A DNA stretch of 63,974 bases, the filler included, from Candidatus Woesearchaeota archaeon (GTDB taxonomy: Archaea > Nanobdellota > Nanobdellia > Woesearchaeales > BM511): the NCBI GenBank assembly GCA_023266675.1. It is 7 parts of 7 records of this genome, joined end to end, with 100 filler letters (N's around TTAATTAATTAA, not from the genome) between each part and the next. Parts side by side here need not be neighbours in the genome. Positions count along the whole stretch, not along the records: positions 1 to 10,299 come from JAHFPP010000049.1; 6 more parts are not named here. One strand, written 5' to 3'. The notes below the pieces were generated by a model. The model saw nothing but the letters and a program-made list of their open reading frames with translations, did no database searches and was not told the DNA's origin. The position numbers and the translations under genes are program-made. The number at the start of each line of letters is the position of its first letter. Position 1 is the stretch's first letter. This document shows, piece after piece, positions 1-10,299 of this stretch.

Positions 1-5
1 AAAAA

Positions 6-1775
6 ATGGACCACGAAACGCTGTGTGCATCACTGCTCCACGATGTTGTTGAGGATGTAGGCATAACAATTGACACAATCAAAAAAGAGTTTGATGATGA
101 AATAGCAAGCATTGTTCACGGAGTTACAAAAACAGAGAAAGTTAGATTTACAACAAAAGAGGATTATAATGCTGAGAATCTTAGAAAAGTTTTACTTGCA
201 ACTTCAAAAGACACAAGAGTAATGATTCTAAAACTTGCAGACAGGCTTGACAATATGATGACATTGTCTGAGTTTACAGAAGAAAAGCAAAAAAGAATAT
301 CGCAGGAAACTCTTGATATCTATGCACCAATTGCGCATAAGCTTGGAATGTGGAACATTAAAGGAGAGCTTGAAGACCTTTCATTAAGATATCTTGACCC
401 TGAAACATATTTCAAGCTTAAAAAAATGATTAATGAAAAAAGGTTTGAAAGGGAAAACAAAACAAAAGAAATAATGAAGGAGATAACAGGAAAATTTGAG
501 AAATTAAATATTGACGCCAAAGTTATGGGTCGCGCAAAATATTTCTACAGCATCAGCAAAAAAATGCAGGAAAAGGGAAAATCATTTGAAGAGATAAATG
601 ATTTGATTGCACTAAGAATAATCGCAAAGACCGTTCCTGAATGCTACACAATACTTGAGCTTATCAAAAGTATATACACACCAATTCATGACAGGTTCAA
701 GGATTACATAAAAAACCCAAAGAAGAACGGATACCAATCGATACATATCGACGTAAAAACAAGCGACAATAAGATTCTTGAAGTACAGATAAGAACAGTT
801 GACATGCACCACCAGTCAGAAGAAGGCGTTGCAGCGCACTGGCAGTACAAGCAGACTCAAAGAGATAAGATATTTGACAGAAAGATTGGATGGTTAAAGC
901 AGATTCTTGAATGGAAGTCAGAGAGCAAAGGAAGAGAATTTTTAGAAGAGTTAAGAATAGACCTTTTTCAGGACGAAGTTGTTGTCCTGACACCAAAAAG
1001 CGATCCGATAATACTTCCTGAAGACGCTACACCAATAGATTTTGCATACGCAGTTCACACTAATATCGGCGACTCATGCTCAAAAGCAGAAATCAACGGA
1101 AAAATTGTTCCGCTTGACTATAAACTTAAAAGCGGAGATATGTGCAGGATAATAACACAAAAAAATTCAATGCCAAATCGCTCATGGCTAAATTTTGTAA
1201 AAACATCAAAAGCAAAATCAAAAATTAGGGCAAAGCTTGGAATCCACTCAGAGAAGGACCAGAAAGCCGCAAGAATGATGCATGAGATGGAAGGGATAGA
1301 ATTTAACCTTGTAAAATATCTGGAATACAACGGAAAAAAGAATATCAAGATTTCAAAATGCTGCAGTCCTCAACTAAATGACCCAATTATAAGTTTCATA
1401 ACAAAAGACGGAAGCGTTACTGTTCACAAAAAAACATGCCCAAACATCCATACGCTTGAAAAGTCTCAGGAAGTCCAGATAAAATGGAAAGAGGAAGACA
1501 AGTCAATTAAAACAATAATTATCAGTGTCCGTGACAGAATAGGATTAATCAGCGACATACTAAACGTTGCAATACAGACAAAGGTGCCAACGCTTGCTAT
1601 AAACATAAAGACAATAAAACAGAATATCCTAATGACATTAAAAGTCAAAGTCATTGACGACGCAAATCTCAACGCATTTATTGAAAGGATTAGCAAAATA
1701 CAGGACGTGCACTCAGTAAAAATCTACAAAAAACTTTTTCCATTCTTTAATTTGGATGACTTCAAAAAAAATTGA
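6..1775 (+). CDS. rel: Long RelA/SpoT homologue (bifunctional (p)ppGpp synthetase/hydrolase), 5'-truncated by window edge
   Basis: HD motif LLHDVVED, KLADRLDNM, synthetase motifs GRAK/DLIALRII/KDYIKNPKKNGYQSIH/EVQIRT, TGS (TPIDFAYAVHT), ZFD (KCCSP..VHKKTCPN), C-terminal ACT (DRIGLISDI). Confidence 0.95.
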   Translation: MDHETLCASLLHDVVEDVGITIDTIKKEFDDEIASIVHGVTKTEKVRFTTKEDYNAENLRKVLLATSKDTRVMILKLADRLDNMMTLSEFTEEKQKRISQETLDIYAPIAHKLGMWNIKGELEDLSLRYLDPETYFKLKKMINEKRFERENKTKEIMKEITGKFEKLNIDAKVMGRAKYFYSISKKMQEKGKSFEEINDLIALRIIAKTVPECYTILELIKSIYTPIHDRFKDYIKNPKKNGYQSIHIDVKTSDNKILEVQIRTVDMHHQSEEGVAAHWQYKQTQRDKIFDRKIGWLKQILEWKSESKGREFLEELRIDLFQDEVVVLTPKSDPIILPEDATPIDFAYAVHTNIGDSCSKAEINGKIVPLDYKLKSGDMCRIITQKNSMPNRSWLNFVKTSKAKSKIRAKLGIHSEKDQKAARMMHEMEGIEFNLVKYLEYNGKKNIKISKCCSPQLNDPIISFITKDGSVTVHKKTCPNIHTLEKSQEVQIKWKEEDKSIKTIIISVRDRIGLISDILNVAIQTKVPTLAINIKTIKQNILMTLKVKVIDDANLNAFIERISKIQDVHSVKIYKKLFPFFNLDDFKKN

Positions 1776-1842
1776 ATTCATAGAGTTGCATTTGATAGAA
1801 TGCATAGCAATATTTAAATAGAAAAAGAGAATCTTCTTTGTT

Positions 1843-2139
1843 ATGGCAGATGAATTCAAAACTAAAAGTGCAATTATCGGAAAAAAAGGAAAGCTTGAGA
1901 ATGATGACAATTATCCTATTTTTGTAAATCTTTTTGATATCAACGACCCACACAAGGATCCGAACATGGTGCCAAAGAAATTTCTTGAGTACAAAGTGCA
2001 CAAGATAATCACAAAAGGACTTACTGTCGAATATTTATTGATAGGAAAAGACCTTCTCATAAACAATCTGAAAAGTATAAAGTTATCTGTTGAAGACCAC
2101 GGACACCTAGTTGTTGAAGGCGTTCAGGAAAAAGAATAA
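1843..2139 (+). CDS. Hypothetical protein (98 aa)
   Basis: ORF with host-like codon usage and upstream TATA-like TTTAAATA; no family recognised. Confidence 0.7.
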   Translation: MADEFKTKSAIIGKKGKLENDDNYPIFVNLFDINDPHKDPNMVPKKFLEYKVHKIITKGLTVEYLLIGKDLLINNLKSIKLSVEDHGHLVVEGVQEKE

Positions 2140-2252
2140 ATTTCTAACTTTTTTATAAATATTATAAGACTCTAAGTGAGTTACGTTTTTGTTAAACGTT
2201 TCTGTTTTTGAAAATATTTTTAATTTTCAATACTCACTCTGTTTTTGCTCAA

Positions 2253-2281
2253 GCACAAGAAAATTAACTAATTTTCTGTGC
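2253..2281. repeat. Intergenic palindrome (REP-like hairpin)
   Basis: GCAC(A)AGAAAATTA-AC-TAATTTTCT-GTGC, 13 bp stem with one bulge; flanked by further hairpins. Confidence 0.6.
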
Positions 2282-2386
2282 CATAAAAACCATGTTTTTC
2301 TTGGCTTTTTCTTAAAAAGGTTGCAAAACATTTATATAGGAGTAACGCCCTTAATTGTATATTAATTATATAGTGGTGGATAAACT

Positions 2387-3841
2387 GTGTTGAACAAAAA
2401 AAGAATAAGTTTAGTTTTGGCATTAATAATCGTTTTCTTGACACCAATTATTGCAAATGCTGCTAGCACACAGACATTTGACATAGAAATAGTTCCTATT
2501 AAAAGCAGCATAGATGAAGATGATATAGCCCAGTATAATCTTACAATCAGCAATGACGCAGACATTGAAGACACTTTTTTAACACCATACACAAGCGACG
2601 CAGACTGGGTGCTTACAACTGATCCACAGGTATTCAAGGTTCCTGCAAAGTCATCACTGTCATACACAATATTTGTAGATCCAAAAACAGAAGTTATACC
2701 AGGACAGTACGGCTCAACGCTTAATGTTAAATCATCAGTTAGCGGACAGATAAGAAAATCAATGTTTCTAATTTATATCAGACCATTAAACCCTCTTCCA
2801 ATGGGTTATACATCATCAATCGCACTAAATGTTGAAGTGCCAACTGACATAGACCCTACAAAGCAGATTCCGTTAAAAGTTTACATAAGAAACAGGAATG
2901 CAAAAGAATATCAAAACCTAACAATTGAAATAAAAAGCGAACTTATAAACAAAATATACTCGACATATTTTAAAGCACTTGAAGAAAAAACAGAGGAGTT
3001 CTCATTTAATATCGATGCGTATACAAAACCGAAGGATGATAAGTTAACTGTAACATTATATAATGGCAACGAAACAATTAACCAGATAAAAGTTCCAATA
3101 AGAGTTATAGCTTATTCAGATGTCAAAGAAAAAACTTCTGTTGACCAAAGATTTTTGAAAACAAAAACAACAGTCACACTTACTAATTTTGGGAATATAG
3201 AAAACAATAATCCTTACAAATATGAAATAGGATTTTTTCAAAAGATTGTAACAACAACCCTGCCTGCTGGGTATAACTATGTAACCAATGATAAGAACAA
3301 TAGGGAGATGGATTTTCCTCTAAATCTTGGACCTGGAGACTCAATGAGTATAGAGATAACAACAAACTACCGATTCTTAGTATACACGCTAATTATTATT
3401 ATAGTGGCAATAGTTATTTACTACCAGCTTAGAAGCCCTGTAATCGTAAAAAAAGAGGCAATGACACATGAGGCAACATCGCAGGGAGTGTCAGAGTTCA
3501 AAGTAAAAGTATTAATTAAAAACAGGAGTCAAAAGCCTGTTGAAAACATAAAAATAATAGAGGTTATACCAAGCCTTGCCTTGCTTGTAAAGGAAGCTGC
3601 TGTTGGAACAATGGAACCAACCAAAGTTATCCAGAATGAGAATAAAGGAACACTGATAAGATGGGATATAAACTACCTTGAACCATTTGAAGAAAGGATA
3701 ATAACATACAGATTAAAGTCAAAGCTTAACATCGTTGGTGGACTGACTTTACAACCTACAAAGGCAAAGTTTGAAACGTCAACCGGACGAGAAAGAGTGA
3801 CATTCTCAAAAAAACACAAGATAGAAATCAACGAGAAATAG
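2387..3841 (+). CDS. Secreted/membrane-anchored protein with beta-rich (Ig-like) domains
   Basis: N-terminal signal peptide, beta-strand-rich repeats, internal TM helix (FLVYTLIIIIVAIVIYY). Confidence 0.7.
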   Translation: MLNKKRISLVLALIIVFLTPIIANAASTQTFDIEIVPIKSSIDEDDIAQYNLTISNDADIEDTFLTPYTSDADWVLTTDPQVFKVPAKSSLSYTIFVDPKTEVIPGQYGSTLNVKSSVSGQIRKSMFLIYIRPLNPLPMGYTSSIALNVEVPTDIDPTKQIPLKVYIRNRNAKEYQNLTIEIKSELINKIYSTYFKALEEKTEEFSFNIDAYTKPKDDKLTVTLYNGNETINQIKVPIRVIAYSDVKEKTSVDQRFLKTKTTVTLTNFGNIENNNPYKYEIGFFQKIVTTTLPAGYNYVTNDKNNREMDFPLNLGPGDSMSIEITTNYRFLVYTLIIIIVAIVIYYQLRSPVIVKKEAMTHEATSQGVSEFKVKVLIKNRSQKPVENIKIIEVIPSLALLVKEAAVGTMEPTKVIQNENKGTLIRWDINYLEPFEERIITYRLKSKLNIVGGLTLQPTKAKFETSTGRERVTFSKKHKIEINEK

Positions 3842-3909
3842 ATTCTAAAGAAATTAAGTAATAATAAAACAAAAACTTATTTAAACATCCCACAAATCCA
3901 TATAATTAT

Positions 3910-4073
3910 CCCCCCTTAGCTCAGTCGGTAGAGCGTTCGGCTGTAGATAAAATCGCCAACTGACTAACGCATCTAATGCAAAGGAATGAAGGTTGGACAG
4001 CTGATACCGAAAGGTCCCCGGAAGTTTGTAAGTGAAAGCTTCAGACTGGGAAATTCGAGTCTGGGAGGGGGGA
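3910..4073 (+). tRNA. tRNA-Tyr(GTA) with two introns (3947-4005 at 37/38; 4022-4053 at 53/54)
   Basis: Removing both inserts gives CCCCCCT TA GCTC AGTCGGTA GAGC G TTCGG CTGTAGA CCGAA AGGTC CCCGG TTCGAGT CTGGG AGGGGGG A, a complete cloverleaf with C1:G72 and A73 (archaeal Tyr identity). Confidence 0.92.
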
Positions 4074-4700
4074 TTTTATTTTTTTAAGATGCTTAGGATT
4101 TCTAAATCCAATATGTTTCATCCATAACTCAAAATTTTTATGCCCATTAATGTCAAGTTCATATGTTATGCATGGTGAATCATTTCTCTTTCTGTTCCTT
4201 AGGTATGGACCTGCAAAGTTTATACCTATTTTACTTAGAGTATTACATATATCATCCACCATATTCTTTGATTTCAAATCAGCAGTTATTCTTGGATATG
4301 ATTGTTTTATTTTTCTAGATTTGAATACCAGACTAAAATCTGTATCGGCGACCCCTCTTAAAAAAGCACATGATAAGATAATATCATTCTTTATCCATTC
4401 AGGCATTCTTACAATATCTGATTTTCTGCCAACAGGAATTCCTAATCCTTCAAAGAAGATTAATGTATGTTTAGAATAAGACCTTAATTCACCCCATTTT
4501 GCTTCATAATCAACTAATTTAACTTCTGATTTTTGAAATAATTCTTTTAAAATTTGAAAATATTCTTTATCATCTTGTTTATGACCTGCAATTACTAGCA
4601 TATAACTTGTTCTTTTTTTAGAAATGTATCTGCTTAAGTGCCCGTCGCCTGCGACAATGCCGCACATTTCTGCAATTTCGGGAGTTAATTTTAAATTCAT
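4041..4700 (-). CDS. Free-standing double-motif LAGLIDADG endonuclease-family protein
   Basis: Motif 1 EMCGIVAGDG, motif 2 AFLRGVADTD, C-terminal IGFRNPKHLKK; 3' end overlaps tRNA-Tyr antisense. Confidence 0.85.
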   Translation of the reverse strand: MNLKLTPEIAEMCGIVAGDGHLSRYISKKRTSYMLVIAGHKQDDKEYFQILKELFQKSEVKLVDYEAKWGELRSYSKHTLIFFEGLGIPVGRKSDIVRMPEWIKNDIILSCAFLRGVADTDFSLVFKSRKIKQSYPRITADLKSKNMVDDICNTLSKIGINFAGPYLRNRKRNDSPCITYELDINGHKNFELWMKHIGFRNPKHLKKIKSPLPDSNFPV

Positions 4701-4850
4701 GCTTAAACCTGGTTTGGAAATTCAAAATTAATGAGTGAAATTAGATTTATAAACATTTGTCGCATACCTGTCCAATTGTCCAGTGGATAAACCTTCCAAG
4801 TATTATACAGACTCTATAAATCCTAATTTTCTTCATAATAAAGCGATAAG

Positions 4851-4873
4851 TTTTTAAATCCCCCCCAATTTCT
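4851..4873 (+). promoter_or_regulatory. TATA box plus C-rich element upstream of the tRNA-Asp/tRNA-Lys/RNAP locus
   Basis: TTTTTAAATCCCCCCCAATTTCT; 21/23 identical to the rpl1-operon upstream element (28882-28904, minus strand). Confidence 0.6.
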
Positions 4874-4879
4874 CGTGAT

Positions 4880-4995
4880 GTTTGCAGATAGTATTTCGAC
4901 GAGTGGTATGGTGAAAAACATTATTAGGGGAGACAAATTTTTTTAAACAGTAAAAAAACATCTTAGCCACAGCTATCTAAGTCAATAAAGCAAAA
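4880..4995 (+). ncRNA. Candidate structured RNA ahead of tRNA-Asp
   Basis: Nested stems TTTGC/GCAAA, AGATAGT/GCTATCT, GTGGT/GCCAC plus two internal hairpins, starting ~25 nt after a TATA box; no known family recognised. Confidence 0.35.
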
Positions 4996-5034
4996 ATGTT
5001 ATTCGAGGATGAATATCATTTGGAAAAAAGAGTT

Positions 5035-5107
5035 GCTCTGGTAGTCTAGTGGCCTATGATGAAGCCCTGTCGAGGCTTCGACCCGGGTTCGAATCCCGGC
5101 CAGAGCG
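5035..5107 (+). tRNA. tRNA-Asp(GTC)
   Basis: GCTCTGG/CCAGAGC acceptor stem, AAGCC-CTGTCGA-GGCTT anticodon arm, TTCGAAT T-loop, G73. Confidence 0.97.
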
Positions 5108-5204
5108 TATTTAGAATAACGAAAAAAGGATCAAAACCTAGAAAGCTAGGTGAATTCAACTCGTTGAATTCGCCGTGTTTTAGTCAAGGTTTTCCTAAAA
5201 CGTT

Positions 5205-5278
5205 GGGCCGGTAGCTCAGCCTGGTAGAGCACTCCACTTTTAATGGAGTGGTCGCGAGTTCAAACCTCGTCCGGCTCA
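5205..5278 (+). tRNA. tRNA-Lys(TTT)
   Basis: GGGCCGG/CCGGCTC acceptor stem, CTCCA-CTTTTAA-TGGAG anticodon arm, TTCAAAC T-loop. Confidence 0.97.
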
Positions 5279-5385
5279 TAATCAGAAAAAAACGAGTGGT
5301 TAAAGCATGCTTTAACTCACTAAGTTTTTAACCGACGTTTAGCGTTGGTAAGTATTATTATTTTAGTTTATCAAAAGGTGACCTC

Positions 5386-5625
5386 ATGGGAAAAACAACA
5401 AAAACATATAACAACCACATTCTTGTTCCAAAACACGAAAAGATTTCAGAAAAACAAAAGCAAGAACTTCTAAAACTGCATAACTGCAAGGAATCTGACC
5501 TGCCAAAAATGAAGATAAATGACATCGCTATTGCAGAAATGTCACCTAAAGCTGGAGATGTTTTTAAGATTACAAGAAAAAATGAAGGCTCATCAGTCTT
5601 TTACAGGGTGGTTGTAGATGAATAA
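5386..5625 (+). CDS. rpoH: RNA polymerase subunit H (Rpo5)
   Basis: HILVPKHE..LPKM..D..GDVFKITR..YRVV; first gene of RNAP operon; SD AGGTGA. Confidence 0.97.
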   Translation: MGKTTKTYNNHILVPKHEKISEKQKQELLKLHNCKESDLPKMKINDIAIAEMSPKAGDVFKITRKNEGSSVFYRVVVDE

Positions 5626-7111
5626 ACAGGAATTATTACTCAAAAAATACTTTGAAGAGAACACGTTTGTAAGTTCTAACATAGAATCATTCAACAAGTT
5701 CATTGAAGAAGAACTTCAGAATGTCATTGACGAAAACAGGGACATTGAACCAACAATCATCCCTCACAACATCGACGAATTCAAGATAAGGCTTGACAAA
5801 ATTGTTGTAAAAAAACCGGAAATAACAGAAGCTGACGGCTCAAAAAGACCAATTTACCCAGCAGAAGCACGACTTCGAAAAATAACATACGCTGCACCAG
5901 TTTACATCACAGTAAGCGCACACATCGACGGCGTTCAGCGAGAAAGCTTTGAAACACAAATCGCGCACCTGCCAATAATGCTAAAATCAAAGCACTGCCA
6001 CTTATTTGGCCTATCCAAAGACGACCTAATAAAACAAGGAGAAGATCCAAACGACCCAGGAGGATACTTCATAATTAACGGAACAGAAAAAGTAATAATC
6101 AACATCGAAGACCTCGCATCAAACAGACTTATTGTTGAAAAGAACAGCATAGGGCCTTCAGAATACACAGCAAAATTATTCTCAGAATACGGTTCATTTA
6201 AAATACCGCACTCACTTGAAAGGCTTAAAGACGGAATATTTTACCTGACATTCACAAGGGTAAAAAGAATCCCAGCAGTTCTATTAATCAAAGCGCTTGG
6301 ACTTGTAAAGGACGAAGAAATAATGAAATTTATCTCGATAGACGATCCTAACCAAGTCTACATAAACCTGTATGAGTTCATTGAAACAAAGAATGATGAA
6401 GAAGCAATAGACTTAATCGCAAAGAAGATAGGAATAACACAGACTAAAGAAGTCCGAGTCGAAAGAATGGCAGAAATAATGGACAAATACCTTCTTCCTC
6501 ATATTGGAACAAAGAAAGAAGACAGAATCCTAAAAGCATACAACATATGCAAAATGATAAAAAAGCACATCGAAGTCTCAACAGGAAAGCTTGAAGAAAG
6601 CGACAAAGACCACTACGCAAACAAGAGACTGAAAATGTCAGGAGACTTACTTGCAGACTTATTTAGGGTAAACATAAAAGTGTTGATTGGAGACATGCTT
6701 TACAACTTCCAGCGAATTGTAAAAAGAGGAAAATTCCCATCAATAAAAGTTATAATAAGAGACAAGCTATTGACATCAAGGATACACTCATCCATGGCTA
6801 CAGGAAACTGGGTCGGCGGACGAAAAGGTATTTCACAGAGAATACAAAGGCTAAACTTCCTTGAAACACTTTCACACCTCCAAAGAGTTGTGAGCCCACT
6901 GTCAGCAAGCCAGGAAAACTTCGAAGCAAGAGCACTTCACCCAACACACCTTGGACGACTTTGCCCGGTTGAAACACCTGAAGGAACAAACATCGGTCTA
7001 AGAAAAAACCTTTCACTTCTAACAAAAATATCACAGGGAAGCAATGAAGAAGAGCTGATGCGAACAATGCTTAAAATAGGAGTAAAACCTGTACAGGTGA
7101 AACAAAAATGA
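5618..7111 (+). CDS. rpoB2: RNA polymerase subunit B'' (Rpo2N)
   Basis: PAEARLRKITY, DPGGYFIINGTEKV, LCPVETPEG motifs. Confidence 0.97.
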   Translation: MNKQELLLKKYFEENTFVSSNIESFNKFIEEELQNVIDENRDIEPTIIPHNIDEFKIRLDKIVVKKPEITEADGSKRPIYPAEARLRKITYAAPVYITVSAHIDGVQRESFETQIAHLPIMLKSKHCHLFGLSKDDLIKQGEDPNDPGGYFIINGTEKVIINIEDLASNRLIVEKNSIGPSEYTAKLFSEYGSFKIPHSLERLKDGIFYLTFTRVKRIPAVLLIKALGLVKDEEIMKFISIDDPNQVYINLYEFIETKNDEEAIDLIAKKIGITQTKEVRVERMAEIMDKYLLPHIGTKKEDRILKAYNICKMIKKHIEVSTGKLEESDKDHYANKRLKMSGDLLADLFRVNIKVLIGDMLYNFQRIVKRGKFPSIKVIIRDKLLTSRIHSSMATGNWVGGRKGISQRIQRLNFLETLSHLQRVVSPLSASQENFEARALHPTHLGRLCPVETPEGTNIGLRKNLSLLTKISQGSNEEELMRTMLKIGVKPVQVKQK

Positions 7112-8910
7112 GCGAGATCTACTTAAACGGAAAATTCATAGGAACATCTGACAATACAAAAAACCTAATCGAACAGTTCAAAGAAGAAAGAAGAAAAGGA
7201 AAAGTAAAGCAGGATGTCAGCATTAACTTCAACGAGAAATCAGACGAAGTACACATTGAAAGCTCAAAAGGAAGAGTAACACGGCCACTTATAGTAATTA
7301 AGGAAGGGAAACCTCTTTTAACAGCAAAACACCTTGAACAGCTTGAGAAAAAAGAGATAACGTACTCAGACTTAATTCTTCAGGGAATAGTCGAATACCT
7401 TGACGCATCAGAAGAAGAAAACATGCTTGTAGCGTTTACAGAAGAAGAGCTTACAGTAAGACACACACACATGGAACTTATGCCATTATCAATGCTTGGA
7501 CTTGCAACTAGTTTAGTTCCATTTGGAAACTACAACGCTTCGACAAGATTAAACGCTGGGTCAAAAAACCAGAAACAGGCAATTGGATTTTACGCAGCAA
7601 ACTACAACGTAAGAATGGACATGGACGTAAACCTACTTCACACACCACAAGTGCCAATCGCAACAACAATCACACATGAAATATCCGACTACGACAAACA
7701 CCCAGCAGGGCAAAACGTAGTAGTAGCAATCATGAGCTACGACGGATACAACATGGAAGACGCAATAATCCTAAACAAGGGATCTGTAGACAGAGGCCTA
7801 GCAAGAAGCACATACTACAGGCCAGAACTTGCAGCAGAACTAAGATACCAGGGAGGACTTATTGACGAAATAGGAATCCCAGACAAAGAAGTTCGAGGAT
7901 ACAGAACAGAACACGATTACAGGATGCTTGAAGAAGACGGAATAATCTGCCAGGAAGCAAGAGTAGCAGAAGGTGACGTAATAATAGGAAAAACTTCGCC
8001 GCCAAGATTCTTATCGTCTTTAGACGAATACAACCTGACACAAAGCCAGCGACGTGAATCATCAACATCAATAAAACACGGCGAGCGAGGAATAATCGAT
8101 TTCATACTAATAACTGAAAACGAAGAAGGAAACAGATTAATCCAGCTAAGACTGCGAGACCAAAGAATACCGGAAATCGGAGATAAATTCACATCACGAC
8201 ACGGACAAAAAGGAGTTGTTGGACTAATAGCACCATTTGAAGACATGCCATTTAGCGCAAACGGAATAGTTCCTGATATATTATTTAACCCTCACGGAAT
8301 CCCGTCCAGAATGACAGTTTCTCACCTGATTGAAATGGTAGGCGGAAAAGTTGGCGCACTAAACGGACGATTCATTGACGGCACAACATTTACATCCGAA
8401 AAAGAAGGAGACTTACGTAAAGAACTTCACAGCCTAGGCTTCTCTGAAAACGGAACAGAAACAATGTACAACGGAAAAACCGGAAACGCGTACCAAGCAA
8501 AGATATTCATCGGAAACATGTACTACCTAAAACTAAAACACATGGTAGCAAACAAGCTTCACTCAAGAGCAAGAGGACCAATCCAGCTATTGACAAGACA
8601 GCCAACAGAAGGACGAGCAAAAGAAGGAGGACTGCGACTTGGAGAGATGGAGAAAGACACGTTTGTTGCACACGGAGCATCAATGCTTCTAAAAGACAGA
8701 TTTGACTCTGACAGAACAATCGTTCCAGTATGCGAAGAATGCGGACTAATAGCAATCCACGACGAATTTAAGAACAGGAACTACTGCCCTGTATGCGGAG
8801 ACACATCAGTGATATCAAACATCGAGATATCATACGCATTCAAATTGATGCTTGACGAACTAAAAACATTAGGTGTATACCCTAAGGTAAACCTAAAGGA
8901 CAAGTACTAG
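7108..8910 (+). CDS. rpoB1: RNA polymerase subunit B' (Rpo2C)
   Basis: GYNMEDA, GDKFTSRHGQKG, RQPTEGRAKEGGLRLGEME, C-terminal Zn ribbon. Confidence 0.97.
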   Translation: MSEIYLNGKFIGTSDNTKNLIEQFKEERRKGKVKQDVSINFNEKSDEVHIESSKGRVTRPLIVIKEGKPLLTAKHLEQLEKKEITYSDLILQGIVEYLDASEEENMLVAFTEEELTVRHTHMELMPLSMLGLATSLVPFGNYNASTRLNAGSKNQKQAIGFYAANYNVRMDMDVNLLHTPQVPIATTITHEISDYDKHPAGQNVVVAIMSYDGYNMEDAIILNKGSVDRGLARSTYYRPELAAELRYQGGLIDEIGIPDKEVRGYRTEHDYRMLEEDGIICQEARVAEGDVIIGKTSPPRFLSSLDEYNLTQSQRRESSTSIKHGERGIIDFILITENEEGNRLIQLRLRDQRIPEIGDKFTSRHGQKGVVGLIAPFEDMPFSANGIVPDILFNPHGIPSRMTVSHLIEMVGGKVGALNGRFIDGTTFTSEKEGDLRKELHSLGFSENGTETMYNGKTGNAYQAKIFIGNMYYLKLKHMVANKLHSRARGPIQLLTRQPTEGRAKEGGLRLGEMEKDTFVAHGASMLLKDRFDSDRTIVPVCEECGLIAIHDEFKNRNYCPVCGDTSVISNIEISYAFKLMLDELKTLGVYPKVNLKDKY

Positions 8911-8921
8911 GAGGCAAAAAA

Positions 8922-10299
8922 ATGGAAGAAAACATCCCAATTTACAAGAAAGTAAAGTCAATATCATTTGGCCTCATATCACCAAAACTGATAAAAAAGA
9001 TGGCATCAGTAAAAATAGTAACACCAGAACTTTATGATAAAGAAGGATACCCAGTTGACGGAGGTCTCATGGACATCCGAATGGGAGTCATTGACCCTGG
9101 TTTAAAATGTAAGACATGCGGTTCAAAACTAAAAGAATGTATTGGACACTTTGGATACATTGAACTAGCTAGACCAGTAATCCACATAAACTTTACAAAA
9201 ATAATTCTTGACACACTAAGAAACACTTGCAGAGAATGCGGCAAAGTTCTTGTAACATCAAAAAAGAAAGGAGAACCAATAATAAACCTTGTTGCTGAAA
9301 CAAGCCTTTCAGATGATGACGAAGTAAAAGAAGATGCATCAGCACCAAAAGTCGCAGCACACGCGCCGACAGAAAGCAAAGCAAAAGCAGCAATGAAATG
9401 CCCGCACTGCAGCGCAAAACAGTACAAGATTCAGATTGAAAAACCAACAACTTATGTTGAAGACGGAAAAAGAATCTCCCCAATCGAGATAAGAACACGA
9501 CTTGAAAGGATACAGGATAAGGAACTTGAAAAACTTGGAATGAACCCTGAAATAGTAAGACCTGAATGGGTTGTATTGACGCTTTTAGCAATCCCTCCAG
9601 TAACAATAAGACCTTCAATCACACTAGAAAGTGGAGAAAGAAGCGAAGACGACTTAACACACAAGCTCGGAGACATCGTAAGAATCAATCAAAGATTATT
9701 TGAAAACATAAACGCAGGAGCGCCAGAAATTATCATCGAAGACTTATGGGACTTATTGCAGTACCATATAACAACATTCTTTGACAACGAAGTTCCTCAG
9801 CTACCGCCAGCAAGACACAGAAGCGGTCAGCCACTAAAAACAATAACTGAAAGAATCAAGTCAAAAGAAGGAAGAATCAGGCACAACCTTGCAGGTAAAA
9901 GAACAAACTTTTGCGCAAGAACAGTAATCTCACCAGACTCAATGCTCGCGCTTGACGAAGTAGGAATACCAAAAGAAGTCGCAATGAAGCTAACAGTTCC
10001 TGAAAAAGCAACAAAATGGAACATGGACTTCCTAAAGGAATTCATAAAAAGAGGACCAAAAGATTACCCAGGTTCAAACTATATGATTAGGCCTGACGGA
10101 CGAAAAAAGAAAATAACTGACGAAACAAAAGAACAGTTAATCGAAGAATTCCAGCCAGGATATGTAGTTGAAAGACACATAATGGATGGGGACATCGCAA
10201 TCTTTAACAGACAGCCATCACTTCACAGAATGAGCATGATGTGCCACAAAGTAAGAGTACTACCAGGACTAACATTTCGACTAAACCCTGCAGTATGCG
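8922..10299 (+). CDS. rpoA1: RNA polymerase subunit A' (Rpo1N), 3'-truncated at contig end
   Basis: CIGHFGYIEL, GKRTNFCARTVISPD, NRQPSLHRMS, ends at LNPAVC before the gap. Confidence 0.97.

Follow-up and report, generated by a model that had tools for sequence, protein, structure and literature searches.

How short introns reach non-canonical positions in archaeal transfer RNA (tRNA) genes, and why tRNA genes become disrupted, is the question raised by the locus described here. It lies in the window, i.e., the whole stretch of 63,974 nucleotides (nt) analysed in this study, which comes from a tiny groundwater archaeon, Candidatus Woesearchaeota archaeon (assembly GCA_023266675.1; the source genome, G000), and it consists of a tRNA-Tyr gene with two introns and a free-standing LAGLIDADG open reading frame (ORF) on the opposite strand. 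In 2010, it was reportedly proposed that non-canonical tRNA introns multiply by spreading among tRNA genes, with no enzyme named and no nuclease gene. The accounts on offer in the sections cited here are that disruption shields tRNA genes from integrating elements, and a single case that involves an integrase (PMC3293823, PMC4390854). In this study, we believe that the locus is probably the cassette of a free-standing homing endonuclease that targets tRNA genes, and that the adjoining mini-intron splits the presumed target.

The tRNA-Tyr gene was missed by ARAGORN (intron options on) and by Rfam at E ≤ 1, which saw only tRNA-Asp and tRNA-Lys nearby, and it was annotated by hand (Table 1). After intron 2 was deleted in silico, ARAGORN called tRNA-Tyr(gta) with a 59-nt intron at position 38, where no call had been made before. 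Because ARAGORN accepts neighbouring cut points, with 41 different deletions giving a call, it is the cloverleaf and the splice motif that define where intron 2 begins and ends. Among the 28 tRNAs called by ARAGORN in the source genome, 11 of them with an intron, there was no second tRNA-Tyr; therefore, the gene in the window would have to work, and both of its introns would have to be removed. Its 5' exon matches the tRNA-Tyr of 19 relatives, and all 19 of those read have an intron at the place of intron 1. Introns at 53/54, likewise ending GGGAAA/TTC, were found in the tRNA-Tyr of two relatives (loci L115 and L118).

Table 1. Features of the tRNA-Tyr locus and of the EndA genes of the source genome. 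Coordinates are those of the window unless a contig of G000 is named.
Feature	Coordinates	Strand	Basis or remark
tRNA-Tyr(GUA) gene with two introns	3910-4073	+	hand annotation, complete cloverleaf, anticodon GTA
tRNA-Tyr exon 1	3910-3946	+	
Intron 1, 59 nt, canonical position 37/38	3947-4005	+	ARAGORN i(38,59)
tRNA-Tyr exon 2	4006-4021	+	
Intron 2, 32 nt, between tRNA positions 53/54 (T stem / T loop)	4022-4053	+	cloverleaf and splice motif
Exon 3: T loop, T stem 3' strand, acceptor 3' strand, discriminator A	4054-4073	+	sequence
T run TTTTATTTTTTT directly 3' of tRNA-Tyr, its putative terminator	4074-4085	+	inside the nuclease coding region on the opposite strand (Lys-rich KKIK)
Free-standing two-motif LAGLIDADG ORF, 219 amino acids (aa), ending KSPLPDSNFPV and stop	4041-4700	-	ORF list
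Conserved nuclease core, residues 1-209, ending at family motif IGFxNPKHxxK	4074-4700	-	alignment of homologues
C-terminal tail SPLPDSNFPV (residues 210-219) and TGA stop (4041-4043)	4041-4073	-	encoded opposite exon 3 and the 3' portion of intron 2
TATA-like box TTTATAAA, ~46 nt upstream of ATG	4746-4753	-	sequence
Tandem CCACTGGACA / TTGGACA motif upstream of the TATA box	4769-4786	-	sequence
tRNA-Asp and tRNA-Lys	5034-5279	+	ARAGORN
EndA-domain gene, open frame 211 or 208 aa (two genes: 211 and 208)	G000 C81:3172-3432		
EndA-domain gene, second of the 211/208 aa pair	G000 C26:24739-24999		

The nuclease ORF converges on this tRNA gene. As the initial annotation of this DNA had claimed, its last codons are antisense to the 3' exon and to intron 2, and intron 2 contains the antisense of its stop codon. 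Exon 3 is wholly overlapped by the ORF on the opposite strand, and the conserved nuclease core and the tRNA-Tyr gene end at the same boundary (4073/4074). The same annotation had described the gene as interlocked with a tRNA intron, which we could not uphold as a functional arrangement, because the C-terminal tails differ among 17 aligned homologues and residues 215-219 of the modelled protein have a predicted local distance difference test score (pLDDT) below 50. The tail in the tRNA gene thus looks like a by-product of the cassette end. The cassette has no stop codon of its own and would be read on to the first stop in the tRNA antisense.

The description of the ORF as a two-motif protein with both catalytic Asp residues held up. 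The motifs GIVAGDGH and LRGVADTDF are present in the 219-aa protein; G18, D19, G20, and D121 do not vary in the alignment of 17 homologues, at least 90% of which retain D119. The single sequence scored 19.1 bits against Pfam LAGLIDADG_3, below the cut-off of 22.5. The profile of the 17 homologues matched I-Tsp061I, PI-PfuI, I-DmoI, and intein endonuclease domains in PDB, with E from 8e-18 to 3e-10. The AlphaFold model (pLDDT 88.6, predicted template modelling score 0.87) has a two-domain fold in which the helix/strand order expected for the DNA-binding saddle of such enzymes, alpha-beta-beta-alpha-beta-beta-alpha, appears twice. The top Foldseek matches were 2dch (I-Tsp061I) and 2vs7 (I-DmoI), the probability was 1.00 to these and to 1dq3, with template modelling scores of 0.58-0.70, and the maturase 2ab5 was also among the matches. 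Judged from its sequence and predicted fold, the protein is a single-chain LAGLIDADG nuclease of the I-Tsp061I/I-DmoI type with its catalytic residues kept.

The gene also lies outside any intein or ribosomal RNA (rRNA) intron, as first described, and the TATA-like box ahead of it is its own candidate promoter. By eye, the same arrangement of TATA box and tandem CCACTGGACA stands upstream of most homologues. The CACTGGACA motif was considered as the left end of the cassette and rejected: it has 35 copies in the source genome, against about 4 expected by our own rough estimate from base composition, and these copies also stand ahead of tRNA and protein genes. Because of this, we believe that CACTGGACA marks a shared promoter type and not a cassette end.

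Intron 2 looks spliceable from its predicted pairing. Exon bases -6..-3 form a 4-bp helix with intron bases -6..-3, the splice sites lie in two 3-nt bulges, and an inner helix AGUUU/AGACU follows, which by eye reaches 6 bp (AGUUUG/CAGACU). Eight of the nine scored pairs are formed, with one C-A mismatch in the 4-bp helix, and there is no outer helix on the 3' side, which makes this a relaxed form of the bulge-helix-bulge motif. The same pattern was found in 13 distinct 53/54 introns of initiator tRNA, in which exon -6..-3 pairs with intron -6..-3, a 5-bp inner helix follows, and each splice site lies behind base 2 of a 3-nt bulge. Of the 117 pairs scored in these introns, 115 form, with compensating changes, and 8 of 9 positions show two to five pair types; controls with a slid 3' partner formed 8-77 of 117 pairs. 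The 53/54 tRNA-Tyr introns of the two relatives fit the motif fully by eye once the register was corrected. According to the part of the source cited here, non-canonical introns are cut only by the heteromeric and epsilon-2 types of the splicing endonuclease EndA (PMC5829648). The source genome has two EndA genes (Table 1), which is compatible with a heteromeric enzyme that could handle non-canonical introns. For intron 1, a hand fit to the strict bulge-helix-bulge motif failed. In the window and across loci L112-L130, intron 1 keeps a GATGA-like word and a terminal CAGCYG...CTGA-like word; these words resemble the box C/D RNAs carried by some archaeal tRNA introns, and CAGCYG can pair with tRNA positions 29-34.

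The window does not stand alone, and relatives of the nuclease were collected from other genomes. The family sample comprised 98 loci with 99 family ORFs, each read individually. The loci came from the best 20 of the first homologue search, the best 30 of the profile search, and 60 more taken by rank from the latter; in picking these 60, we passed over any row that had an internal stop or lay at the end of a contig, as well as duplicates and genomes not yet published. Nine duplicates, L046 (unpublished), and L014 (an intein) were removed from the set, and L057, truncated by a contig end, contains no family ORF. A tRNA was counted as adjacent when it was full and its near end fell within -134..+53 nt of the ORF stop. 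The tRNA scanner was home-made; it needs one intact arm, is blind to tRNAs with both arms interrupted or with odd loops, yields some false long "D" calls, and limits calls to 260 nt.

By this automatic scan, 73 of the 99 family ORFs had a tRNA end within the range. The same procedure, applied to all 974 ORFs of at least 150 aa in the source genome, found a tRNA end in range for 7, two of which are LAGLIDADG paralogues, and chance adjacency was rejected on this control. The 26 ORFs without an automatic call were inspected by eye: 17 have a tRNA at the 3' end, 6 have an initiator tRNA with an intron that lies just upstream and is read the same way, and 3 have no tRNA. Counting these calls by eye, 96 of 99 family ORFs are tied to tRNA genes. 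Two layouts dominate the automatic calls: 46 pairs are convergent, and 27 are co-directional, the stop of the ORF overlying the 5' end of the tRNA. Of the 46 convergent pairs, 17 have the ORF stop at precisely 18 nt within the tRNA. Seven more loci from other orders of the class have the same layouts. Pairing with a tRNA gene is therefore the rule in this family, which is very large, with about 600 members, and is spread through a Woesearchaeota-like class of archaea (DPANN). By RpoB, the nearest relatives bear the labels Woesearchaeota, Nanoarchaeota, or Nanoarchaeia.

The source genome itself has two paralogues, 32% and 30% identical to the 219-aa protein. The one on contig C77 converges on a tRNA-Phe(GAA) with an insert 3' of the anticodon arm, and its stop is a TGA in the T-loop antisense. 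The one on C83 lies ~45 nt upstream of a Thr-like tRNA with inserts; brute-force double deletions of this tRNA led ARAGORN to call Ser, Thr, Asp, Phe, and others, and the label "Thr-like" rests on likeness to intron-less relatives. ARAGORN misses the partner tRNAs of both paralogues, so that standard tRNA finders overlooked all three partner tRNAs of the source genome, including the sole tRNA-Tyr detected in it, which is of concern for annotation. The Thr-like type, which has an unusual T loop (TGCAAnT) and lacks GG in its D loop (GCATAGTAGCTATTGC), often partners members of the family and was seen at G000 C83:9270-9390, L019, L040, L077, L079, L080, L086, and L094; its interrupted copies are missed by standard finders.

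A given nuclease lineage stays with a single type of tRNA gene. On a FastTree tree of 73 nucleases, the tRNA class, a rough class read from the partner's 5' end, changes 20 times, compared with at least 40 times in each of 200 shuffles, and the orientation changes 13 times against a shuffle minimum of 15. Well-supported clades have initiator tRNA, Phe, Gln-like, class II, and elongator-Met-like partners, and their members come from different genome families, which fits a sequence-specific recognition of the tRNA gene. The nuclease of the window groups with those of L030 and L037 (support 99), both beside tRNA-Tyr-like genes. The L037 partner is tRNA-Tyr(gta) by ARAGORN. ARAGORN called the L030 partner His(gtg) and gave it an 88-nt intron; judged by the acceptor, the D arm, and the anticodon stem, it is probably tRNA-Tyr-like, and the His(gtg) call would be a mis-splice.

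Interruption of the partner tRNAs is not evenly distributed. Partners were at least 90 nt long in 68 of 73 cases, compared with 17 of the 26 remaining tRNAs found in these loci (Fisher p = 0.0014). An interrupted T arm was seen in 18 of 46 convergent partners and 3 of 27 co-directional ones (p = 0.015), whereas the D arm was unrecognised in 1 of 46 and 8 of 27, respectively (p = 0.0011); all three p-values are inflated by kinship. The interruption is thus preferentially in the arm adjoining the nuclease gene. The initial annotation had proposed to check whether tRNA-adjacent LAGLIDADG genes and non-canonical introns occur together across DPANN genomes; the comparisons mostly favoured its reading, which is supported in part. 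In the 30 best loci of a DNA search with initiator tRNA, a 53/54 intron was found in 6, and a nuclease gene lies at the 3' end in 3 of these 6 but in 0 of the other 24, one of which has a LAGLIDADG ORF 246 nt upstream. For tRNA-Tyr, co-occurrence was not seen in 7 of 19 relatives, whose T-arm introns (2 at 53/54 and 5 in the T loop) have no nuclease gene within 1.5 kb. At L076, the 5' acceptor strand of the tRNA-Phe beside the nuclease gene appears by eye to be split after the fourth base by a ~31-nt insert (GGGG...TCG), which would be an intron inside the acceptor stem.

If a nuclease cassette entered a broken tRNA gene, pieces of the old gene might be left behind. A second copy of the abutted tRNA end piece, defined as a 16-base window with at least 15 identical bases, was found upstream of the cassette in 8 of 98 loci, compared with 1 of 294 mismatched pairings. 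For example, the leftover copy at L043 starts at position 54, which is the intron place of the working initiator tRNA, that at L064 starts at 57, where the T loop of the tRNA-Phe is split, and the 5' leftover copy at L010 ends in the D loop, at the intron of the tRNA-Gly. Among 15 loci compared by eye, the break of the leftover matches the intron in 7 and lies within a few nt of it in 3. These pieces indicate that the insertions broke the tRNA gene itself. They fit the entry of a unit of mini-intron, replacement end piece, and nuclease gene at a break inside the tRNA gene, and they suggest a route by which the nuclease gene could be lost with the intron kept. In two relatives whose tRNA-Tyr has no nuclease gene (L112 and L116), a repeated 3' end piece lies ~100-130 nt downstream and may be the scar of a lost cassette; by tblastn, no nuclease remnant was detected beside the tRNA-Tyr loci L112, L115, L116, and L118. 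The L116 repeat takes in ~22 nt of downstream flank. In the window, a C-run at ~4858-4866 was considered as a leftover tRNA 5' end and dropped, as the likeness is weak.

From these findings, we suggest the following course of events. The locus would be a compact selfish cassette, consisting of its own promoter and a single-chain LAGLIDADG gene, inserted at the 3' end of tRNA-Tyr. The enzyme would cut the uninterrupted tRNA gene in the conserved stretch of the variable loop and T arm, and repair from a cassette-bearing copy would import not only the nuclease gene but also the tRNA end piece next to it, with the mini-intron. The mini-intron, here at 53/54, would split the target, so that the carrier is not cut. 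Where the site that the cassette enters shares no homology downstream, the former tRNA end piece would persist as a decaying copy, and recombination between the two end-piece copies could later remove the nuclease gene while the intron stays.

Repeated tRNA ends are also known from another kind of element. In Caldiarchaeum subterraneum, the disruption of tRNA-Thr(GGU) has been explained by a mobile-element model (Sugahara et al. 2012, PMC3293823), and, as far as the cited part of that paper goes, its integrase-bearing element likewise shows direct repeats of the tRNA end and a rebuilt, intron-bearing tRNA. One could therefore suppose that integrase-type recombination at tRNA att sites duplicated the end pieces here and that the LAGLIDADG gene is cargo or a later arrival. 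We consider this very improbable: the segment bounded by the repeats is only ~1 kb, with the LAGLIDADG ORF as the sole long ORF seen by eye, the nuclease lineage tracks the tRNA type, and no integrase gene was noted by eye between the repeats, although no family search for integrases was made. The cited part describes the Caldiarchaeum element as an insert that resembles a plasmid, has an integrase and att sites, and was seen at a single locus of one population. In contrast, the homing endonuclease proposed here is the sole gene of a ~1 kb insert, and the pattern recurs across ~100 inspected loci and in 190 of 301 genomes of the order.

The site in the window can be compared with the same site in relatives. 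The block upORF - tRNA-Tyr - tRNA-Asp - tRNA-Lys - rpoH - rpoB is kept across the order. In 9 of 19 relatives, rpoH or rpoB lies within 1.5 kb of tRNA-Tyr, and a nuclease gene is present in 0 of these 9. The Tyr-Asp spacer, widened by the cassette, is 960 nt in the source genome; it is 125 nt in G003, and 156 and 310 nt in two other relatives. G003 belongs to the same family as the source genome; its spacer is empty, and it is also without intron 2. The orthologous spacer is filled in G000 and in G042, which is from another family, with the nuclease gene at the same place. Contigs of four public DNA runs were compared with positions 3000-6000, and none of them join across the cassette; only cross-matches of tRNA pieces from other organisms were found.

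Such an empty site bears on whether the protein is still a mobile nuclease. A domesticated LAGLIDADG protein could act as a DNA-binding regulator of tRNA and other stable-RNA genes, or as a helper in the removal of tRNA introns. This would agree with the upstream CACTGGACA motif, which is common to tRNA and other promoters, with the several paralogues per genome, with the N-terminal extensions of some homologues, and with the existence of LAGLIDADG maturases, one of which (2ab5) is among the fold matches. However, the distribution is patchy: a profile search (E ≤ 1e-10) found family matches in 190 of 301 genomes of the order, a tally in which five genomes are unpublished and some matches may be intein domains, whereas 111 of 301 were without a match, and the copies range from 0 to at least 9 per genome (at most 9 candidates were scored in each). 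A wider sample with other orders of the class gave matches at E ≤ 1e-30 in 87 of 201. In addition, the orthologous site is empty in a relative of the same family, at least one copy is broken (L019), and the two catalytic acidic positions show little or no variation among 17 diverse members. Moreover, archaeal-type introns are removed by EndA, for which two genes are present. We therefore regard domestication as quite improbable and the cassette of a homing endonuclease as the better description of the locus.

Several observations weigh against our proposal. The intron-bearing initiator tRNAs L131, L134, and L136 have no nuclease remnant beside them (tblastn, E ≤ 0.01), and the T-arm introns of seven tRNA-Tyr relatives given above also lack a nuclease gene. 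Conversely, five nuclease genes adjoin intron-less tRNAs (L073, L080, L084, and L110, and L040 by eye). The tRNA-Tyr genes of L030 and L037, whose nucleases are closest to that of the window, are interrupted in the variable loop and not at 53/54, and because of this the 53/54 intron is no fixed passenger of this nuclease lineage. Leftover copies are clear in only ~8-19% of loci, their break is not at the intron in 5 of the 15 loci compared, and no leftover tRNA-Tyr piece was found upstream of the window's own cassette. The loci were drawn from the best-scoring, stop-free family matches; the tRNA calls come from a home-made scanner, with intron positions and several tRNA calls made by eye; and the genomes are related and not independent, by which the p-values are overstated.

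Some of these points would be expected if the nuclease gene is mobile but the tRNA is not its target. The tRNA flank might then be a safe and conserved landing place or a source of transcription signals, and the introns would be unrelated residents. T-arm introns without a nuclease gene and nuclease genes beside intron-less tRNAs agree with this, and introns are common in these genomes anyway, as 11 of the 28 ARAGORN tRNAs have one and 17 of the 26 non-adjacent tRNAs reach at least 90 nt. The initial annotation had named homologues sitting equally often beside intron-less tRNAs or non-tRNA loci as evidence against a link between nuclease and intron. Apart from the five intron-less partners, this is not what was found, since 96 of 99 family ORFs are tied to tRNA genes and the partners are nearly always interrupted. 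A mere landing place also does not account for nuclease clades that follow tRNA identity across genome families, for an interruption biased to the arm beside the nuclease gene, for leftover end pieces showing that insertions broke the tRNA gene itself, or for the co-occurrence of the 53/54 intron with the nuclease gene in initiator tRNA. For these reasons, we think it unlikely that the tRNA is only a neighbour, and we prefer the explanation in which the tRNA gene is the target of the endonuclease.

In a search of the literature that left subscription journals largely uncovered, no paper was found on a connection of LAGLIDADG genes with either archaeal tRNA genes or DPANN groups. A LAGLIDADG enzyme with a tRNA gene as target is known from bacteria. 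I-SspI is the LAGLIDADG endonuclease of a group I intron in cyanobacterial tRNA-fMet; it is encoded inside this self-splicing intron, in the anticodon loop, whereas the gene described here is free-standing. I-Tsp061I and I-DmoI, the best structural and profile matches, are monomeric two-domain enzymes of similar size, and they also target conserved archaeal stable-RNA genes. Their genes lie in sense inside bulge-helix-bulge-type introns of the rRNA genes that they target; in contrast, the gene studied here lies outside the tRNA, often antisense to it, with its own candidate promoter, and the introns beside it are not long enough to hold a gene.

Free-standing nucleases of phages provide a closer parallel in arrangement. 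In the parts of the reports cited here, intron-less or collaborative homing is described for T4 MobE with the defunct I-TevIII intron and for F-CphI beside the psbA intron of cyanophage S-PM2 (PMC2790892, PMC6083498). There, too, the nuclease gene stands outside the intron, beside a gene whose intron-bearing form is thought to escape cutting, and when the cut is repaired, the nuclease gene can be transferred along with the intron. The phage systems involve HNH or EndoVII-type enzymes, self-splicing group I introns, and protein genes, whereas the present case has a LAGLIDADG enzyme, cellular archaeal genomes, a tRNA partner, and short protein-spliced introns, and a tRNA end piece that replaces the old one seems to be carried as well. 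Randau and Söll are cited in PMC3293823 and PMC4390854 for the idea that disrupted tRNA genes resist integration.

We speculated further, and with some doubt, that tRNA-locked LAGLIDADG cassettes could be a main generator of non-canonical tRNA introns and tRNA gene fragments in Nanoarchaeia-type archaea, perhaps in archaea at large. Each invasion would swap one tRNA end for a copy with a target-splitting mini-intron. If this is true, the odd intron positions of archaeal tRNAs would map the cleavage sites of past homing endonucleases. The nuclease family would supply both a concrete enzyme and natural sites in their hundreds, whether filled, empty, or scarred. It is also a large untapped set of compact meganucleases whose candidate targets are known and highly conserved.

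The assembly of the source genome is 1.22 Mb in size with 34% G+C, and positions 1-10299 of the window are one contig. At 10300-57000, contigs are joined by N runs (13 runs, 538 N in total), and only 1-10299 is continuous with the tRNA-Tyr locus.

Duplicated tRNA halves were also seen at four class-II-like tRNA genes with inserts (G000 C33:6500-7020, C34:24940-25470, C57:7680-8100, and C31:6500-6840), with no nuclease gene between the copies. Upstream of these tRNAs, a promoter module CACTGGACA...TATATAAA is followed by a degenerate copy of the 5' half and then by a second TATA box, and the degenerate copy ends about where the anticodon-loop intron of the working gene begins. Some members of the nuclease family are longer than the protein of the window: those of L009, L010, L012, and L020 have N-terminal extensions of 80-90 aa, and that of L012 has a C-terminal extension too, with 416 aa in all. 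By eye, the sequences of these extensions resemble helix-turn-helix modules that may bind DNA.

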